Part shown: one piece after another, positions 1,590 to 27,889 of the stretch | Layout of the letters: every line of letters begins with the position of its first letter | Position numbering within the stretch: the stretch's first letter is position 1 | Assembly (NCBI GenBank): GCA_001829875.1 | Contig: MICN01000097.1 | Coordinates: forward strand, 1-51,617 | DNA length: 51,617 nucleotides | Direction of reading: 5' to 3' | Source: Syntrophus sp. GWC2_56_31 | Lineage (GTDB): Bacteria > Desulfobacterota > Syntrophia > Syntrophales > UBA5619 | Notes under the pieces: generated by a model | What the model was told of the DNA's origin: nothing | Database searches by the model: none | Seen by the model: only the letters and a program-made list of their open reading frames with translations | Position numbers and translations under genes: made by a program

Positions 1590-1863
1590 GCTTTCGTCTC
1601 AGCACCATCCGGATCGCAATATAAGGGAAGAGGAAAAAAAGAAAATTGCAGCCCTTCACAAACGCCATGCCGTAATAATTCAGCAAATCGTATTCGTGTC
1701 TTGATATTTGAAACCACTTGGCATGCATCGTATAACCCAACTCACCGCCGACCAGGAAAAAGATGAACCAGAGCGTAATGAAGACAGCACCCAAGACAAA
1801 GCATCGGATCAAGATACGGGACAGGATTTCCAGACCGCTTTTGAAACTCGAAGATTCATTCAT
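1582..1863 (-). CDS. small integral membrane protein, unknown function
   Basis: 93-aa ORF with two or three hydrophobic spans (CFVLGAVFITLWFIFFLVGG, FLFFLFPYIAI). First gene of the minus-strand operon. No family recognised. Confidence 0.45.
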   Translation of the reverse strand: MNESSSFKSGLEILSRILIRCFVLGAVFITLWFIFFLVGGELGYTMHAKWFQISRHEYDLLNYYGMAFVKGCNFLFFLFPYIAIRMVLRRKRE

Positions 1864-2235
1864 AGGGTTCCTCCTGACTGTCTGCTCGGCTGACCTTCGA
1901 TCGGTTACAGCACCATGACGCCTCTCGTTTTCCGGTTGTTCGAAATACCATCGTTCGGCGGGGGTTTAATGCAATCAATACAGGCAGATCATTATTTGAT
2001 CGTCATCTCGCATACTTTTCAAAATCAGTCAATAACCGCTTTCGGGCACGAATTGCCGCCGGTTATGGCCTTGACTTCCAGAATTGATGGATGTAGTAAG
2101 TACGATCAACAAAATATAGCAATCGTTATTAATTTTTTTAACCCTAAACCGTGAGGGTGCAATCGACGGACGGCCCAAAGACCCCGTGTCTCCAAAAAAG
2201 AGAGGGGGGGTCTTCTTTTTTTGGAGGTAAATGCC

Positions 2236-2943
2236 ATGGATGAACCTGTGATTTTGGATAAGGCGTTTCATGTCATCATGAAGCGCATGGTGGAAACCGG
2301 CCAGGCGCCGTTTTATACGGAACTGGCATCCTCGCTCGGTCTTGCCGTCGAAGAGGGGAGAGCCGCCCTTCACGACCTTTTCGGCTCGGGCATCGCCGGA
2401 TGGCTGTATCCGAGAACCGACCACATCGTCTCCTTTGCACCCTTCAACAACCTCCCCACCCATTACCGCATCAGCATAGACGGCCAGCAGAAATGGTTCG
2501 GCCAGTGAGGATTCGAATCGCTGGCGGTCTGCTGGCTCTTCCCCGGCAAAACGGTAACGGTGGATTTCCCTTGTCTGGACTGCGGCGAACCTCTTCAGGT
2601 CGTGCTCCGGGATGGCGTGATCCTGAACGAAGAAGCCTCCGGATACATGGCCTATGTGTCCGTTCCGCTGTGGAAATGGGTAGAAGACATCGGATATGCC
2701 TGAGCGACCATGAACCTCTTCCGGTCGGAAGGGCATGTTCGCAATTGGGCCTCGTTTGACCAAGGCAGCGACGAAGGAATTACGCCGATCACCGATATGA
2801 TGAGGCTTTTCTCGGGACCCTACTTCAAACGGCGGCTGGATCGGGATTATGTCTCACACATGTTCGAGTACGTCCGTGAGATGGGCCAAACCATGAAGGA
2901 GATCGGAAAGACCGGTCCGTTCTGGAGACGGCAAAAGAAGTGA
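2236..2943 (+). CDS. MerB (alkylmercury lyase) family protein, putative selenoprotein with two UGA-encoded Sec residues (TGA at 2506-2508 and 2701-2703)
   Basis: Track ORFs 2221..2508 and 2710..2943 share one frame, and the 64 codons between them contain no other stop. GGAGG lies 8 nt upstream of ATG 2236. KWFGQ-U-GFESL aligns to MerB YAW-C96-ALD99TL, and GYA-U-ATMNLF aligns to MerB SF-C159-CHVHFF. The stretch between aligns to MerB [26 protein letters not shown]. Confidence 0.65.
2515..2541 (+). promoter_or_regulatory. candidate bacterial SECIS stem-loop for UGA 2506-2508
   Basis: Hand fold: 2515-2517 pairs with 2539-2541, followed by a 2x2 internal loop. The 6-bp upper stem pairs 2520-2525 with 2531-2536 (two G-U pairs). 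The apical loop GGUCU (2526-2530) begins 18 nt after the UGA. Confidence 0.5.
2712..2740 (+). promoter_or_regulatory. candidate bacterial SECIS stem-loop for UGA 2701-2703
   Basis: Hand fold: lower stem GAAC/GUUC pairs 2712-2715 with 2737-2740. The 7-bp upper stem pairs 2716-2722 with 2727-2733. The apical loop GGUC (2723-2726) begins 20 nt after the UGA. Confidence 0.55.
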
Positions 2944-2970
2944 CCGTACGATTTTGCGCCGGAGGCACCC

Positions 2971-3198
2971 ATGACCATTATCGAATCCATCAAAACCCGA
3001 AAACCCTGCCGGTCGTATAGCGCCAGAGCGATTGAACCGGAGAAGCTGGCTGAATTGAAACAATCCCTGACATCGGACACAAAGACACCTTTCGGAAGCA
3101 AGGTTTGCCTTCATCTCATAGATTTCAACGAAATGGACATCGGTGAGCTTAAAAATCCTACCACCTATGGTGTCATCAAGGGAGCCCGGCGATTATAA
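2971..3198 (+). pseudogene. N-terminal remnant of a nitroreductase-family gene (truncated at ~75 codons)
   Basis: MTIIESIKTRKPCRSY...TYGVIKGARRL matches the N-terminus of nitroreductase-like proteins, which normally run to well over 200 aa. A TAA stop follows and no frame continues the homology. Confidence 0.45.
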
Positions 3199-3308
3199 GC
3201 TGGACATGACACCATCCTTGCCGGTCGGAAGTTCATGATAGCGGACCGCCGGAAAGTTTGCCTTGATCCATGTTGCCGTTTGTACTATCGTCCTCCGCGA
3301 TGAACCGT

Positions 3309-3317
3309 TGGTATACT
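3309..3317 (+). promoter_or_regulatory. possible extended -10 promoter (TGgTATACT) for the nitrilase gene
   Basis: TGnTATACT lies 27 nt upstream of ATG 3344. No good -35 element is present. Confidence 0.3.
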
Positions 3318-3343
3318 GCGATTTCAGATAAAGGGGGTTTACG

Positions 3344-4387
3344 ATGGGCGACCACTATCCTACAGTAAAGGTTGCCGTTATTCAGGCCGCACCGATATTT
3401 CTCGACCGGGAGGCAACCACTCAAAAGGCCTGCTGCCTTATCAGGGAAGCGGGGCAGGCCGGAGCCAAACTCATCGCTTTCCCGGAAGGATTTATCCCGG
3501 GTCACCCGCTCTGGTACCATTTCCATCCGGCAACCGGGCCCACCAGCCGGGATATGGCTTTGCGGCTTTTTAAAAACTCCGTGGAAATACCGGGCCCTCA
3601 AACCGAAGCACTCTGTCAGGCGGCAAAAGAGGTCGGCGCATATGTCGTGATGGGTCTCTGCGAAAAAAGACCGGGAACCTTTGGAACCATGTTCAATTCC
3701 CAGCTTTTCATCGCCTCGAGCGGAGAAATTATGGGCAAGCACCAAAAACTTACCCCGACCGTCGGAGAGAAACTCGTTCATACAGGGGGTTTTGGCGATA
3801 CGCTCAGGGCGTTCGATACGGAATTCGGAAAGATTGCCGGTTTGATCTGCGGTGAGAGTTCAAATCCCCTCTCCCTTTTCGCCCTTATTGCCGAAGGGAC
3901 GATGATCTTGATCATTTCGTGGCCAAATCTGCCGGGCCGAAAAATGCTGAACAGGGCCGACCGGGCGGTAATGGCAGGACGAGGCTGCGCATTTATGTCG
4001 AAAGCTTACATTCTAAACTGTGTGGGCGCCATGAACGATGAAATGAAAGCGATGCTCGCCTATACCGAAGAGGACAAAAAATTCCTGGCCGATGACACAT
4101 TGACGGGCGGATCTTCCATCATTTCACCGAACGGAGAGCTGCTTTGCGGGCCGTTGGGACATGAAGAAGGCATTCTGTATGCCGATCTGGACCTGGAACG
4201 GTCCGTGGAGGAAAAGCTCATCCACGACCTGGCCGGACACTACAACCGACCCGACGTCTTTTGCCTTAAAGTCAACAGCGAGGCGCCCTCCCTGTACCTC
4301 AGAGAAAAGTGGTACGGGCAAAAGGAGCAGGGCGGGCCGCATATCGATGGGTCGACTTGCGGTGAAGACCCCGATGCGGAAGTCTGA
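3344..4387 (+). CDS. nitrilase / carbon-nitrogen hydrolase family protein
   Basis: 347 aa. VKVAVIQAAP...AFPEGFIPGHP supplies the catalytic Glu, HQKLTPT the Lys and GLICGES the Cys, matching the nitrilase E-K-C triad. RBS AAGGGGG precedes the ATG. Confidence 0.85.
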   Translation: MGDHYPTVKVAVIQAAPIFLDREATTQKACCLIREAGQAGAKLIAFPEGFIPGHPLWYHFHPATGPTSRDMALRLFKNSVEIPGPQTEALCQAAKEVGAYVVMGLCEKRPGTFGTMFNSQLFIASSGEIMGKHQKLTPTVGEKLVHTGGFGDTLRAFDTEFGKIAGLICGESSNPLSLFALIAEGTMILIISWPNLPGRKMLNRADRAVMAGRGCAFMSKAYILNCVGAMNDEMKAMLAYTEEDKKFLADDTLTGGSSIISPNGELLCGPLGHEEGILYADLDLERSVEEKLIHDLAGHYNRPDVFCLKVNSEAPSLYLREKWYGQKEQGGPHIDGSTCGEDPDAEV

Positions 4388-23007: not shown

Positions 23008-24156
23008 ATGAACATATTATCACAGGATGAATTAAAGACATTGATGGGAAAGCACCCGGGACTTTGCGTCTCGATTTTCATGCCCACCTTCCGCACCGGC
23101 GTGGAAAGCCAGCAGAACCAGATCCGGTTTAAAAATCTCCTCCGCAGTGCGGAGGAAAAGCTGCTGGCCGCCGGTATGCGTTCGCAGGAACTCAAAGAAC
23201 TGCTGGAACCTGCTCAGGCACTTCCGGGAAACGCACTATTCTGGCGGCGACAGAGCGACGGCCTGGCGCTTTTTCTCTGCGCCGGTCTGTTCCGCTGTTT
23301 CTGTCTTCCCGAGGCATTCGATGAGCTCATCGTCGTCGCCGACCGTTTTCACGTCAGACCCCTTCTGCCGGTCCTGAGAAACGACAGGCGGTTCTACATC
23401 CTGACCCTCAGCCAGAAAGAGGTCAGGCTCCTGGAAGGGACCGGGCAGGGCGTCAGAGAAATAGAACTGGAGGCGCTGCCCAAAAGCCTCGATGAGGCGT
23501 TGCAGCATGACGAACTTGAAAAACAGGTTCGTTTCCGTACAGGCTCTCTCAGCGGTGGAACAGGGATGGCAATGGTTTCCGGACACGGAGGGGTTGCTGA
23601 TGACACGAAAGATAATCTTCTTAAGTATTTCCGCATGATCGACAGAGAACTCCACGATCGGCTCAAGGACGAACACGCGCCTCTTGTCCTCGCCGGGGTG
23701 GACTATCTATTTCCCATCTACCGTGAGGCCAACACCTTTCCCCACCTTATCGAGGAGGGTATCCCGGGTAATCCCAGGGGGATCAATTCGGATTCCCTTT
23801 ATCGTATGGCATCGAAAATCGTTGCCCCCTTCTTTCAGAAGGCCGAAAACAACGCCCTCGCCCAGTACCGGCAGTCCTCAGGAACCGGGCTGACCTCTGC
23901 CGACATCCGGGAGATTGTCCCGGAAGCCGCCAACGGCCGGGTCGGCATGCTCTTCATCGCCGCGGGGAGCCGGAATGAGGGAACGTTCAACCGAGCGAGC
24001 GGAACGGTTAACCTGTACCGGACACCGGAGGCCGAAAATGAGGATCTGTTGGAGATCGCTGCGATTCAAACCTATCTCAACGGCGGATCGGTCTTCATCC
24101 TGCCTCCGAAAAAAATGCCGGAACCGAAAGACCTCGTCGCCGTGTTCCGCTACTGA
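23008..24156 (+). CDS. hypothetical protein, possibly a bacterial eRF1/Pelota-like (baeRF-type) protein
   Basis: Clean 382-aa ORF with AAGGAGG 7 nt upstream. CVSIFMPTFRTG..QQNQIRFKNLL and SGHGGVADDTKDNLLKYFRMIDRELH resemble the eRF1 central-domain context GRGGQSA..F.R.....Y.RKV. The family assignment is from memory, not a search. Confidence 0.5.
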   Translation: MNILSQDELKTLMGKHPGLCVSIFMPTFRTGVESQQNQIRFKNLLRSAEEKLLAAGMRSQELKELLEPAQALPGNALFWRRQSDGLALFLCAGLFRCFCLPEAFDELIVVADRFHVRPLLPVLRNDRRFYILTLSQKEVRLLEGTGQGVREIELEALPKSLDEALQHDELEKQVRFRTGSLSGGTGMAMVSGHGGVADDTKDNLLKYFRMIDRELHDRLKDEHAPLVLAGVDYLFPIYREANTFPHLIEEGIPGNPRGINSDSLYRMASKIVAPFFQKAENNALAQYRQSSGTGLTSADIREIVPEAANGRVGMLFIAAGSRNEGTFNRASGTVNLYRTPEAENEDLLEIAAIQTYLNGGSVFILPPKKMPEPKDLVAVFRY

Positions 24157-24336: not shown

Positions 24337-25365
24337 TCAACTTCCGTCTCCACCGACCGGGGGCGCCAGATCCGGAGGCTTGACGGGTACTGGTGTTTGC
24401 GCGTCACGGGATGTCCTGCCCTTGTAGATGAAGCGATCGAACAAGCGGTGATAGGGCGTCCAGTCCGACTCCTCATCCCGGGCGTCTCTAATGGTTTCCT
24501 GGAAGGCATTCACCTTGGCGTCCAGGTCGTCCATGAAATGGACAATCAGAGCCTCCAGTGTTTTTGGCCGCTTGGGTGAACCGTACTCGAGAATACCATG
24601 ATGGCTGAGGATGAGGTGGCGAAGTTCCATGGCCACCGCTTCGGGAAAATCAGGGATGGCTGCGATCTTCCGATCGACCATCTCCACACCCATGACGATA
24701 TGTCCGATCAGCCGTCCAGGATCGCTGTACTCCACAATCCGCTCATAGGAAAATTCGTAAATCTTCCCGATATCGTGGAGGATGCCGCCTGCGATCAGGA
24801 GATCCCGGTCGATCCCCCGGTAGTGGCCGGCCGCCAGATCGAGCAGACGAACGACGGATAGAGTATGTTCCAAAAGGCCTCCAATGTAGACATGGTGAAA
24901 CCCTTTGGCCGCGGGCGCCCTTCGGAAGAGCGCGGTGAGCGTCTCATCCTCGAAGAATGATCGCAGGAGTGCGGAAAGACATGGTGTTTTGACCTGCTCG
25001 ACATAACCGAGGATGCCCGAGTACATCGCTGCGAGATCCCCTCTCGCTACCGGAAAATAGTCGGCCAGTTCGACCTCCCCATCTTCGACCTTACCGAGCT
25101 CGATGATCGAAAGCTGGATGGCATTTTTGAAACTCAGCGCCCGCGCCTGGATACGAATCAAGTCGCCCTTTTTGAACACCTTCTCCCAGGTCAAGGCATT
25201 TTCCCAGACCTTCCCGTCCACGTCCCCGGTCCTGTCCCGCAGACGGAGATTCAGATAGGGAGCTCCCTTCTGGGAATAGGCAAGGTTTTTCTCCGCCGCC
25301 AGAAAAACTTCATTCACCTTGTCCCCGCTCTTGATATCTTTCACGTAAATCGATTTCGGTTTCAC
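24337..25365 (-). CDS. YhaM-like 3'-5' exoribonuclease (OB-fold plus HD domain)
   Basis: N-terminal OB fold (YLNLRLRDRTGDVDGKVWE) and an HD domain (HHVYIGGLLEHTLSV...GGILHDIGK...LILSHHG). Starts 31 nt downstream of selB on the same strand. Confidence 0.75.
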   Translation of the reverse strand: MKPKSIYVKDIKSGDKVNEVFLAAEKNLAYSQKGAPYLNLRLRDRTGDVDGKVWENALTWEKVFKKGDLIRIQARALSFKNAIQLSIIELGKVEDGEVELADYFPVARGDLAAMYSGILGYVEQVKTPCLSALLRSFFEDETLTALFRRAPAAKGFHHVYIGGLLEHTLSVVRLLDLAAGHYRGIDRDLLIAGGILHDIGKIYEFSYERIVEYSDPGRLIGHIVMGVEMVDRKIAAIPDFPEAVAMELRHLILSHHGILEYGSPKRPKTLEALIVHFMDDLDAKVNAFQETIRDARDEESDWTPYHRLFDRFIYKGRTSRDAQTPVPVKPPDLAPPVGGDGS

Positions 25366-25396: not shown

Positions 25397-27322
25397 TCAC
25401 TTTTCCTGTCTTTCGCGGAGGATCCGGTGTTCTCCCGTCCGCACGGTCAGTTTCGTCATATCGAAATACTCCATCAGAGGGATGATGAATTTTCGCGTAA
25501 GGCCGGTCATCTCTTTGAAGTTCGCCGGTGTTGCCCGGCCTTCTTTGATCAGAAATTGCCGGTAATCCTCACGAAGCCGCGCCAAGGCATCCTTGTGGAA
25601 GTTCAGATCTTCACTGATCCTAAACAGGTCCCCCTCACGGGTCATTACCTGGATGAGGTTTACGATCTCTTTTTTCCGGTCGGGAAACCGCTCCAGGACC
25701 TCCCTTACAGTCGGCGGCGCCAGTCCGCCCTCCCGATACAGACCGTCAATTTTTTCCCTCAGATCTCCCATCTCCCCCTTCAACTGGACACGATGCCCCG
25801 TCAGACGTGTCATTTCCTTCTCGGCGATGATTTCTCCCCTTTTTTCGAGATCCCTAAGGGCCATGCCGAAGATCTTCGGATCGACCCCATCGCCCATTTC
25901 GAGCGTCGTCCGGAGCTCCTCCCGGGACAGTCCCTCTTTCAGAGGAAATTGTTGATGATAATCTTCAAGTTCCCGGATGATCTCTTCCTGCAAACCGGTA
26001 TAAACCGACCCGGATAGGATCCTCGTCTCTTCCCGGTCTACGAGAATGGCTTCCTTTACGGAAAACATCCGCTCCAGGAGCTTGCGGAGCTCAGACCGGC
26101 GGATCCCTGTCCGAACCACGAGGCGGGATTCCGTGATGCCGCCGATACCGGCCCTCGCCATGATGACGGCCACCTTCTCACTCTCGCCCCCGCTGGAAAG
26201 ACGTCGGAATTCCTCCCGAATACTCTCTGCAAATCGCTTGTGTTTCACGGTCAGAGGATCGACGATCTCGCCACCCCCGATCGTCGTTACGGGGGAATAC
26301 CCCCGAACAACAAACCGGTCCCCGGCTACGGCAGCCAGCGGGGAATCGAGGACAAGCTGGGCGAAACCCTCCCCACCGGGTTCCAGTTCATCTCGGTCCA
26401 GAAGGATCAACCGCGCCATGACCTCGCTTGTGCCTGTATGAAAACGGACGAGGGTGCGGTTTTTCGCTTTCCGTCCGGCGCCGGCAAGATGGCGATAGAC
26501 ACAATCAAGGCGTTGCGACGCGACCAGGGCATTGGGCCCGGCAAGAACATATCCCCGCTCGATGACCGCCCTGTCTACCCCTTGAAGGTTGACGGCTGTC
26601 CGCTGCCCCGCTTCGGCGCTCTCCACGACCCGGTTATGGACCTGAATTCCCCTCACTCTGGCCCGTAACCCGACGGGGAAGATCTCCACCTCCTCACCGG
26701 TGGCCACCTTTCCGGAGGCTAATGTCCCCGTGACGACGGTACCGAAACCCTTCATCGTAAAAACACGGTCGACGGGCAGACGGAAGAGCCCGACATCGGC
26801 CGCCTCTTCCACCTCGTCCGCCACTCGAGCGATGGTCGCTATGAGCTCGGGAAACCCATCCCCCGTCAGGGAAGAGACCGGAACGAGCGGCGCTCTCTCC
26901 AGAAAAGTCCCTCCGAGAAATTCACGGACGTCCTCCCTGACCAGCGTCAGCCACTCCTCATCCACCATGTCAACCTTGGTGAGGGCGACAAACCCCTTTC
27001 GTATCCCGAGAAGGGTGCAGATCTGCAAGTGCTCCCGGGTCTGCGGCATAATTCCTTCATCGGCCGCGATCACCATCACCACAAGATCGATGCCGGCAGC
27101 GCCGGCTACCATGTTCCGGACAAACCGCTCGTGACCCGGGACATCGACGACACCGAGGACTCGACCATCGGGGAGAGACAGCGAGGCGAAGCCGAGCTCG
27201 ATGGTGATTCCACGCTCTTTTTCCTCTTTTAGCCGGTCGGTGTCCACGCCGGTGAGCCGCTTGATCAGTGCTGTCTTACCATGATCCACATGGCCGGCCG
27301 TACCCATTACGATATGCTTCAT
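25397..27322 (-). CDS. selB: selenocysteine-specific translation elongation factor SelB
   Basis: GTPase motifs [21 protein letters not shown] and TKVD, EF-Tu-like domains II and III, and a long C-terminal winged-helix region. ATG 27322 ([11 protein letters not shown]) is preferred over the extended track ORF start at 27592. Confidence 0.93.
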
Positions 27323-27387
27323 AAACGAGAAGGTAACAGACTCATCGCCTTTTCTCAACAGCAAAATAGACAGTTCTTGACAAACGA

Positions 27388-27396
27388 TGATATAAT
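27388..27396 (+). promoter_or_regulatory. extended -10 promoter candidate (TGaTATAAT) for ruvX-mltG
   Basis: TGnTATAAT lies about 47 nt upstream of GTG 27443. The nearby TTGACA (27377-27382) is only 8 nt away, so it is not a functional -35 for this -10. Confidence 0.35.
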
Positions 27397-27442
27397 AGCT
27401 CAGAAAATACCGATGTTGAACAGTGACGCTAAAGAGGACACA

Positions 27443-27889
27443 GTGAGGATACTGGGGATCGATTACGGCGACCGGCGAATCGGAGTCGCCGTCTGCGATG
27501 AACTTGGAATGACTGCCCAGGGAGCGGCGACTCTCAAGCGAAAGAATCGCGCGGCGGACATCGAGGCGATCGCCGAACTGGTGCGACGTCACGACGTCGT
27601 GCAGATCGTTATCGGCTACCCTCTCCGACTCGACGGGAGCAAAGGAATTCAGTGCGAGAAGGTCAATCGGTTTTGCCGGCGTTTGGAGGCCCGCCTTTCA
27701 CTTCCCGTCATCCGTTGGGACGAAACCCTCTCCACAAAAGAGGCCGACGATATCCTTCGCCGGGCCGGTGTGCCTCCGAAGAAAAGAAAAGGGATTGTCG
27801 ACCGCGTTGCCGCCTCCGTCATCCTCCAGGGATATCTCGACGCGCTGGCGCGCGGGGAAAAGGGCGAGAGTGTAAATAGAAACAAATGA
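27443..27889 (+). CDS. ruvX: Holliday-junction resolvase-like nuclease RuvX (YqgF)
   Basis: VRILGIDYGDRRIGVAVCD is the YqgF N-terminal motif. GTG 27443 follows AAGAGGA; in-frame ATG 27413 is an alternative start. Confidence 0.85.
   Translation: MRILGIDYGDRRIGVAVCDELGMTAQGAATLKRKNRAADIEAIAELVRRHDVVQIVIGYPLRLDGSKGIQCEKVNRFCRRLEARLSLPVIRWDETLSTKEADDILRRAGVPPKKRKGIVDRVAASVILQGYLDALARGEKGESVNRNK

Follow-up and report, generated by a model that had tools for sequence, protein, structure and literature searches.

Does a gene with two in-frame stop codons, placed exactly where a metal enzyme would carry its catalytic cysteines, encode a broken protein or an intact one with two selenocysteines (Sec, U)? 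This question is raised by a gene related to the organomercurial lyase MerB in Syntrophus sp. GWC2_56_31 (GenBank assembly GCA_001829875.1, contig MICN01000097.1), whose forward strand we analysed from position 1 to 51,617; this whole stretch of 51,617 nucleotides is called the window below. Judging from sequence comparison, the gene very probably encodes an intact cytosolic protein of 235 residues with the MerB fold, in which both metal-ligating cysteines are replaced by Sec and the acid is Glu94. Its identity as a two-Sec selenoprotein, with Sec inserted at both UGA codons, appears well supported, and we see little room to doubt it. The gene belongs to a widespread, systematically mis-annotated MerB subfamily with Sec at both metal-ligand positions.

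A MerB-like frame with two internal UGA codons

The gene and its sites are placed as follows.

2236–2943, forward strand: predicted MerB-like selenoprotein gene, 235 codons and a terminal TGA (2941–2943) in one frame
2223–2227, forward strand: ribosome-binding site GGAGG, 8 nucleotides 5' of the ATG, conserved in the closest relatives, whose homology to the window begins there
2506–2508, forward strand: UGA codon 91 (predicted Sec91), on MerB Cys96; TGA in 152 of 152 unique relatives
2515–2517, forward strand: GAA codon 94 (Glu94), on the MerB proton donor Asp99
2572–2583, forward strand: Cys113-Leu-Asp-Cys116 motif; Cys113 on MerB Cys117, Cys116 with no MerB counterpart
2701–2703, forward strand: UGA codon 156 (predicted Sec156), on MerB Cys159; TGA in 151 of 151 unique relatives

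Read from 2236 to 2943, the frame is interrupted by these two internal TGA codons only; they are 195 nucleotides apart, and the 64 codons separating them hold no further stop. A preliminary description of this DNA had proposed that two listed open reading frames (ORFs) share one frame and are split by nothing but the two TGAs, and the frame is confirmed. The true start is the ATG at 2236, the TTG at 2221 of the ORF list being purely mechanical. The two Sec would lie 65 residues apart, in the peptides WFGQ-U-GFESLAVCWLFPGK (site 91) and WVEDIGYA-U-ATMNLFR (site 156).

For database searches U was written as C. The window protein then matches Pfam MerB (PF03243) over residues 72–191, with E=2.2e-16 and 60.4 bits against a cutoff of 27. 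In phmmer alignments with MerB chains of the Protein Data Bank (PDB), U91 stands on Cys96, E94 on Asp99, C113 on Cys117 and U156 on Cys159; FPGKTVTVDFPCLDCGEPL also aligns with the MerB segment that the preliminary description had paired with it. Both searches agree with its claim that the product is collinear with MerB and that the two stops fall on the catalytic cysteine columns. Glu94 is Glu in all 152 unique DNA sequences with Sec at both sites, and in the protein-search set it is Glu, with Asp in a few members. Across the family Cys113 is invariant and Cys116 at least 90% conserved.

The structure was modelled for P0035, a natural homologue with Cys at both positions that is 53% identical to the window protein. 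Its AlphaFold model has a predicted local distance difference test score (pLDDT) of 94.3. Compared with the PDB by Foldseek, the model finds significant matches only in MerB and MerB2 (E down to 8.5e-11, template modelling score up to 0.68, about 21% identity).

Conservation of the two UGA codons was followed through 160 related loci of 60–97% identity. A scan of species-representative genomes yielded at least 520 loci, of which the best 80 (60–91% identity) were analysed; a metagenome scan, with 155-residue proteins as queries, gave another 80 analysed loci, all of them Sec/Sec. Codons were counted on 152 unique sequences. TGA occupies both columns in 79 of the 80 genome loci, where no other internal stop occurs, the exception being the frameshifted L037. 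It occupies both in all 80 metagenome loci, three of which carry additional damage. Overall, 159 of the 160 loci keep both TGAs, and extra stops or frameshifts affect about four (L037, L114, L127 and L129). While the internal codons are invariably TGA in the unique sequences, their terminal stop varies (TAA 56, TAG 46, TGA 36). The ratio of nonsynonymous to synonymous substitution rates stands at 0.13 for the stretch ahead of codon 91, 0.14 for the middle stretch and 0.22 for the one beyond codon 156. Each of the three is therefore translated and subject to purifying selection, which excludes a pseudogene and a 90-residue end product.

The rival that these data address is a decaying pseudogene, or else a split gene consisting of a 90-residue winged-helix N-terminal domain and pieces restarted at GTG 2560 or ATG 2710. 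Gene callers do produce pieces of 90, 155 and 74–77 residues, Met159 is invariant and in principle usable as a restart codon, and the four loci named above are truly damaged. Yet 159 of 160 loci carry nonsense codons, always TGA, at precisely the two catalytic columns, which does not resemble decay; decay is real in only about four of the 160. Purifying selection is about equal over the three segments, no ribosome-binding site is seen ahead of the internal starts, and no separate piece would contain both catalytic residues. We regard this rival as improbable in the extreme. The preliminary description had argued for an intact gene and had named signs that would tell against it; the homology spans the full length, SECIS-like structures (selenocysteine insertion sequence) are predicted, and the related genomes carry at the same two columns either TGA with conserved hairpins or Cys. 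The retained TGAs, the purifying selection and the constraint on the hairpins at the RNA level all speak for its view.

One locus departs at the first site. L175 (protein P0008), on a 1-kb metagenome contig, shares 90% identity with the window gene; its codon 91 reads TCA (Ser), and its first SECIS element is fully intact. The TCA may be a sequencing error; otherwise Sec has changed to Ser very recently, which would be expected to inactivate the site.

Public records hide the gene, as had been anticipated from its split frame. In GenBank, the 90-residue records named 'hypothetical protein' from metagenome-assembled genomes (MAGs) of Syntrophus sp. are identical to the N-terminal fragment of the window protein. 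Hundreds of further entries are fragments, cut off at residue 90 or 155 or beginning only at 159, and about 68 database proteins of 155 residues have Cys at column 91 and end exactly at column 155. No database source that we searched calls any family member a selenoprotein. Such fragments, and the false Trp residues described below, carry over into alignments and structure predictions.

Hairpins and decoding of the UGA codons

Each internal UGA is followed by a hairpin.

2515–2541, forward strand: predicted SECIS element 1; lower helix 2515–2517/2539–2541, upper stem 2520–2525/2531–2536, apical loop GGUCU 2526–2530
2704–2742, forward strand: predicted SECIS element 2; upper stem 2716–2722/2727–2733, apical loop GGUC 2723–2726, lower helices 2709–2712/2734–2737 and 2704–2707/2739–2742

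Folding reproduces both stem-loops, which had been drawn by hand in the preliminary description with loops GGUCU and GGUC: the loops start at the 18th nucleotide after the UGA at site 1 and at the 20th at site 2. Published criteria for bacterial SECIS elements ask for a loop of 3–9 nucleotides, a stem of 4–16 base pairs, a G in the first two loop positions, a spacing of 16–37 nucleotides and a minimum free energy of at most -7.5 kcal/mol. Site 1 lies within all of these limits, with a 5-nucleotide loop, a 6-bp stem, a spacing of 17 nucleotides and -7.9 kcal/mol; so does site 2, with a 4-nucleotide loop, a 7-bp stem, a spacing of 19 nucleotides and -8.2 kcal/mol for the upper stem or -17.3 kcal/mol for the whole element. 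Rfam gave no match at gathering thresholds over the whole window, and a permissive search of 2450–2800 gave chance microRNA matches only.

Both hairpins lie inside conserved coding sequence, where nucleotide conservation is weak proof of an RNA element, and we therefore measured synonymous codon entropy instead. It was computed at conserved residues for codons 95–101, for codons 161–166 and for 100 other conserved codons. Relative to expectation, the entropy is 0.38 and 0.15 over the two hairpins and 0.91 over the other 100 codons (Mann-Whitney p=2e-8). Eleven of the 12 hairpin codons tested rank among the 12 with the strongest constraint in the gene, the twelfth being Ser157, directly after the second UGA. 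Several are practically fixed: CGG for Arg163 in 150/150 sequences, and TCG for Ser164 (146/146) and for Ser95 (139/142). At site 1 the six stem pairs form in 136–139 of 139 sequences; at site 2 the six inner pairs of the upper stem form in 116–117 of 117 and the outermost pair in 98/117, while the two lower helices are largely specific to the window. Both loops are probably close to that of the E. coli fdhF SECIS, whose apical loop contains GGUCU, and the distance from the loop GU to the UGA presumably agrees within one nucleotide.

Two controls show that the hairpin constraint is tied to the UGA. The first uses forms with Cys at column 91, of which three are true DNA loci with TGC (L170, L171 and L173), the larger set being at the protein level. 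Val98, whose GUC codon supplies the loop GU, is kept in 50/50 Sec forms and variable in Cys forms (V/M/L/I/T). Peptide entropy over hairpin 1 is 0.35 in Sec forms against 0.95 in Cys forms, compared with 1.15 against 1.38 in the rest of the protein. The second control is L009, a member with Cys at both columns, in which the NLFRS peptide is identical and coded CTC TTT CGA TCG, and hairpin 2 is lost.

The decoding machinery is represented in the window by one gene.

25397–27592, reverse strand: selB, with Pfam domains GTP_EFTU, SelB beta-barrel, SelB-wing_2 and SelB-wing_3

The GTPase and the SelB winged-helix domains confirm the assignment made in the preliminary description. To our knowledge, selB has no role apart from Sec insertion. 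The listed ORF has 731 residues from a GTG, but its GTPase domain begins at residue 92; translation probably starts at a later codon inside the listed ORF. As a side observation, a baeRF ('bacterial archaeo-eukaryotic release factor') gene and an HD-domain/OB-fold gene adjoin selB (23008–24156 and 24337–25365), a curious pairing of a release-factor-like protein with a factor that competes with termination at UGA.

Could the UGAs be decoded otherwise, as Trp, Cys or Gly, by a reassigned code or by near-cognate read-through? About 50 database protein clusters (P0001–P0054 and others) do show Trp at both catalytic columns. Each such Trp examined at the DNA level is nevertheless a TGA, translated with genetic code 4/25 on contigs of 1–2 kb. 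TGA is the commonest ordinary stop in the window, ending 17 of its 36 long ORFs, the gene itself included; the genetic code is therefore standard, and an alternative code was rejected on this ground. The presence of selB, the selected hairpins that follow both UGAs and fit the SECIS model, and the relatives, in which Cys, chemically the analogue of Sec, fills these columns and a TGG-coded Trp is never seen, also argue for Sec, and decoding as another amino acid seems very improbable.

Some findings weigh against Sec insertion at this locus. Single-sequence folding energies are unexceptional against shuffles (z = +0.68 at site 1 and -0.95 at site 2). Most stem positions are invariant, so that covariation support is thin; site 2 shows a few double compensatory changes, U-A to G-C with both amino acids altered and C-G to U-A. 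Neither selA nor selD was found within the window, including around selB, and a tRNA scan of the window returned no tRNA-Sec and no tRNA of any kind. It is the comparative data that place the hairpins above chance, the single-sequence z-scores not being used, and with covariation thin the RNA case rests mainly on synonymous-site suppression.

Judging from the comparative evidence, the locus is very probably translated as follows. At UGA91, hairpin 2515–2541 with its loop GGUCU would recruit SelB with Sec-tRNA(Sec), and Sec would be inserted; 195 nucleotides later, hairpin 2704–2742 with its loop GGUC would drive the second insertion at UGA156. Termination would occur at the third UGA (2941–2943), which has no such hairpin.

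Distribution, Sec/Cys exchange and surroundings of the gene

In the genome scan, carriers belong mainly to Thermodesulfobacteriota: Syntrophales, Desulfobacterales, Desulfomonilaceae, Desulfarculales and Syntrophobacteraceae. Single carriers occur in Dehalococcoidia, Poribacteria and Abyssobacteria, and forms with Cys at column 91 and Sec at column 156 in Acidobacteriota, Dehalococcoidia and others. L009 is joined by more distant full-length relatives with Cys at both columns, so that the usual Sec/Cys pairs are found at both sites.

The two columns behave differently. A rough neighbour-joining tree of 118 members shows Sec at column 156 in 117 of them and at least 17 changes of state at column 91, with Cys/Sec and Sec/Sec proteins that are up to 91% identical. 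These sequences make the second Sec look essentially fixed in the family and the first evolutionarily labile.

Neighbour clustering over 163 loci found no conserved partner and no mer operon, and the commonest neighbour family occurs at 17 of the 163. The family gene is thus stand-alone, and its context offers no functional clue. In the window it is surrounded by a HAD hydrolase, a nitroreductase remnant and a CN hydrolase, with no MerA nearby.

The closest relatives share a unit of only about 740 bp, made of the ribosome-binding site, the gene and about 18 nucleotides past the stop, at 90–97% nucleotide identity; the flanks are unrelated in every case. The unit spans 2223–2960 in the window, 5966–6708 in L010, 452–1220 in L011, 5952–6730 in L012, 5985–6724 in L013, 1158–1812 in L014 and 18–763 in L175. 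L010 and L011 are two copies on one MAG contig, 12 kb apart, with a DEAD-box helicase and an M23 peptidase between them; that contig also holds an SLT transglycosylase just beyond and an ORF of 1,644 residues with no Pfam match. These sequences suggest that the window gene is mobile by itself or is carried in mobile DNA.

Directly 3' of the gene, a 75-codon ORF (2971–3198) resembles the N-terminal part of a TM1586-type nitroreductase (full length about 215 residues), with a sub-cutoff Pfam score (E=1.7e-4). It ends in TAA and continues in no frame; it has the look of a truncated remnant, which fits a rearranged region. Directly 5' of the ribosome-binding site, at 2178–2222, lies a strong hairpin AAGACCCC...GGGGGUCUU followed by a U-run. 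It resembles a terminator or attenuator and is specific to the window, the homology of relatives starting just 3' of it. It was not called in a simple promoter and terminator scan of 1850–3400, which gave nothing exceeding shuffle expectation.

Chemistry, substrate and related systems

If the fold works as in MerB, the two chalcogenolates would meet across it and bind an organometal compound through its metal, weakening the bond between metal and carbon. Residue 94, the acid, would protonate the carbon as it leaves; methylmercury, for example, would yield methane. The metal would then be held between the two selenolates until it is passed on, and Cys113-x-x-Cys116 is one candidate acceptor; possible roles for this pair are metal hand-off, redox resolution of an Se-Se bond, or structure. 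By its homology the substrate may be an organomercurial, an assignment that we hold tentatively and a little short of even confidence.

Several points tell against an organomercurial lyase. Glu stands in place of Asp99, and a bis-selenolate site should hold Hg(II) extremely tightly, so that turnover is hard to explain. Metal release without MerA is an acknowledged problem already for ordinary MerB in genomes that lack MerA. The window protein reaches 24 bits against a cutoff of 193 with the curated MerB equivalog model NF009710, and 24.4 bits against 140 with the curated SaoL model NF040728; no model of NCBIfam 20.0 captures its family. In place of the MerB signature Cys96/Asp99/Cys159/Cys117 it has Sec91, Glu94, Sec156 and Cys113, so that the positions are kept and three of the four residues differ. 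The lack of a mer operon or conserved partner adds to these points. The window gene product belongs to the MerB superfamily, yet it is neither a canonical MerB nor SaoL.

The same features leave room for a two-Sec selenoprotein with another role, either a lyase for another organometal or organometalloid (tin, lead, arsenic or tellurium) or a metal binder or chaperone like NosL. Zero mer genes or conserved neighbours at 163 loci, the score below the MerB equivalog cutoff with about 21% identity to MerB, the Glu for Asp99 and the extra Cys that makes a CxxC would all suit it, and copper-binding NosL is reported as the sole other protein structurally similar to MerB. Haft and Gwadz argue that substrates other than mercury compounds are plausible for SaoL, given the Sec at its metal site, and that other metals too can be bound by MerB (bioRxiv 10.1101/2022.07.06.499078). 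The full ligand-acid-ligand triad is kept, though, and a simple binder would not need the acid; MerB enzymes are moreover the only significant structural matches. Selenolates also prefer mercury, which counts against a non-mercury role. On balance we consider such a role quite possible while leaning somewhat against it.

Has a Sec-containing MerB family been catalogued before, as the preliminary description had left open? One has: SaoL, a MerB-like selenoprotein and the organometallic lyase of the SAO system, was described in 2022 (bioRxiv 10.1101/2022.07.06.499078). It forms a separate branch, and the window gene fails its model. The window protein shares with SaoL the Pfam MerB family PF03243 and Sec at the Cys159 column, and both families occur in anaerobes including Deltaproteobacteria and are routinely truncated at the UGA in databases. 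Whereas SaoL has a Cys-Sec dipeptide (CU), Cys at the Cys96 column and Asp as the acid, the window protein has Tyr-Ala-Sec (with Ala at codon 155 in 90% of 152 sequences), and in its family the acid is Glu and the Cys96 column holds Sec or, in some members, Cys. SaoL is encoded in a conserved nine-gene locus with transporters, unlike the window family. In a May 2026 catalogue of 119 prokaryotic selenoprotein families, SaoL, with one Sec, is the only MerB-like entry. Only a small subset of these families has two or three Sec, in line with the earlier remark that bacterial proteins with two Sec are uncommon. Further full-text searches, thin on subscription journals and made without a direct RefSeq query, found no other account of a two-Sec MerB branch.

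Canonical MerB (plasmid R831b; PDB 3F0O, 3F0P and 3F2F; MerB2, 5C17) has the same fold as the P0035 model, with metal ligands, acid and buried Cys117 in register with the window protein. In contrast to its Cys96/Asp99/Cys159, the window protein has Sec/Glu/Sec and adds Cys116 to make a CxxC, and its gene does not sit in a mer operon. Among the multi-Sec families of the 2026 catalogue, MbdU (NF045648), the UxxU metal-binding protein (NF041115) and FmdB-family UxxU proteins likewise have two UGA-encoded Sec, presumed to bind metal jointly. As listed, those families carry short local motifs (CU, UxxU), while the two Sec of the window protein would meet only through the fold, each has its own SECIS, and the pair replaces the catalytic residues of an enzyme. 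The selenoprotein forms of HgcA and HgcB also bring Sec to the mercury-carbon chemistry of anaerobes and were likewise missed by annotation until recently, but their folds are unrelated and their reaction, methylation, is the opposite one; no hgcAB linkage was seen near the family gene at the 163 loci.

Most bacterial selenoproteins have one Sec, and this family would give their catalogue an enzyme with Sec as both of its catalytic metal ligands. Since close relatives differ in having Sec or Cys as the first ligand, which has switched repeatedly, the family offers a natural experiment on the contribution of Sec at a metal site. Surveys of mer genes accept MerB homologues only with Cys96, Asp99, Cys159 and Cys117, and the family is invisible to them because its residues differ and its ORFs are truncated. 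The mechanisms by which anaerobes degrade methylmercury are still unclear. It is conceivable, if on present grounds unlikely, that the family, with at least 520 loci in species-representative genomes of syntrophs, sulfate reducers and other anaerobes, is a dedicated bis-selenolate organometal lyase behind part of the mer-independent methylmercury degradation long observed in anoxic peat, sediment and groundwater, or that it acts on a natural organometal not yet linked to an enzyme; Sec/Cys switching at the first ligand may then tune it to selenium supply or product release. For organisms of peat, wetland, groundwater and sediment metagenomes, the family would be a testable candidate gene.

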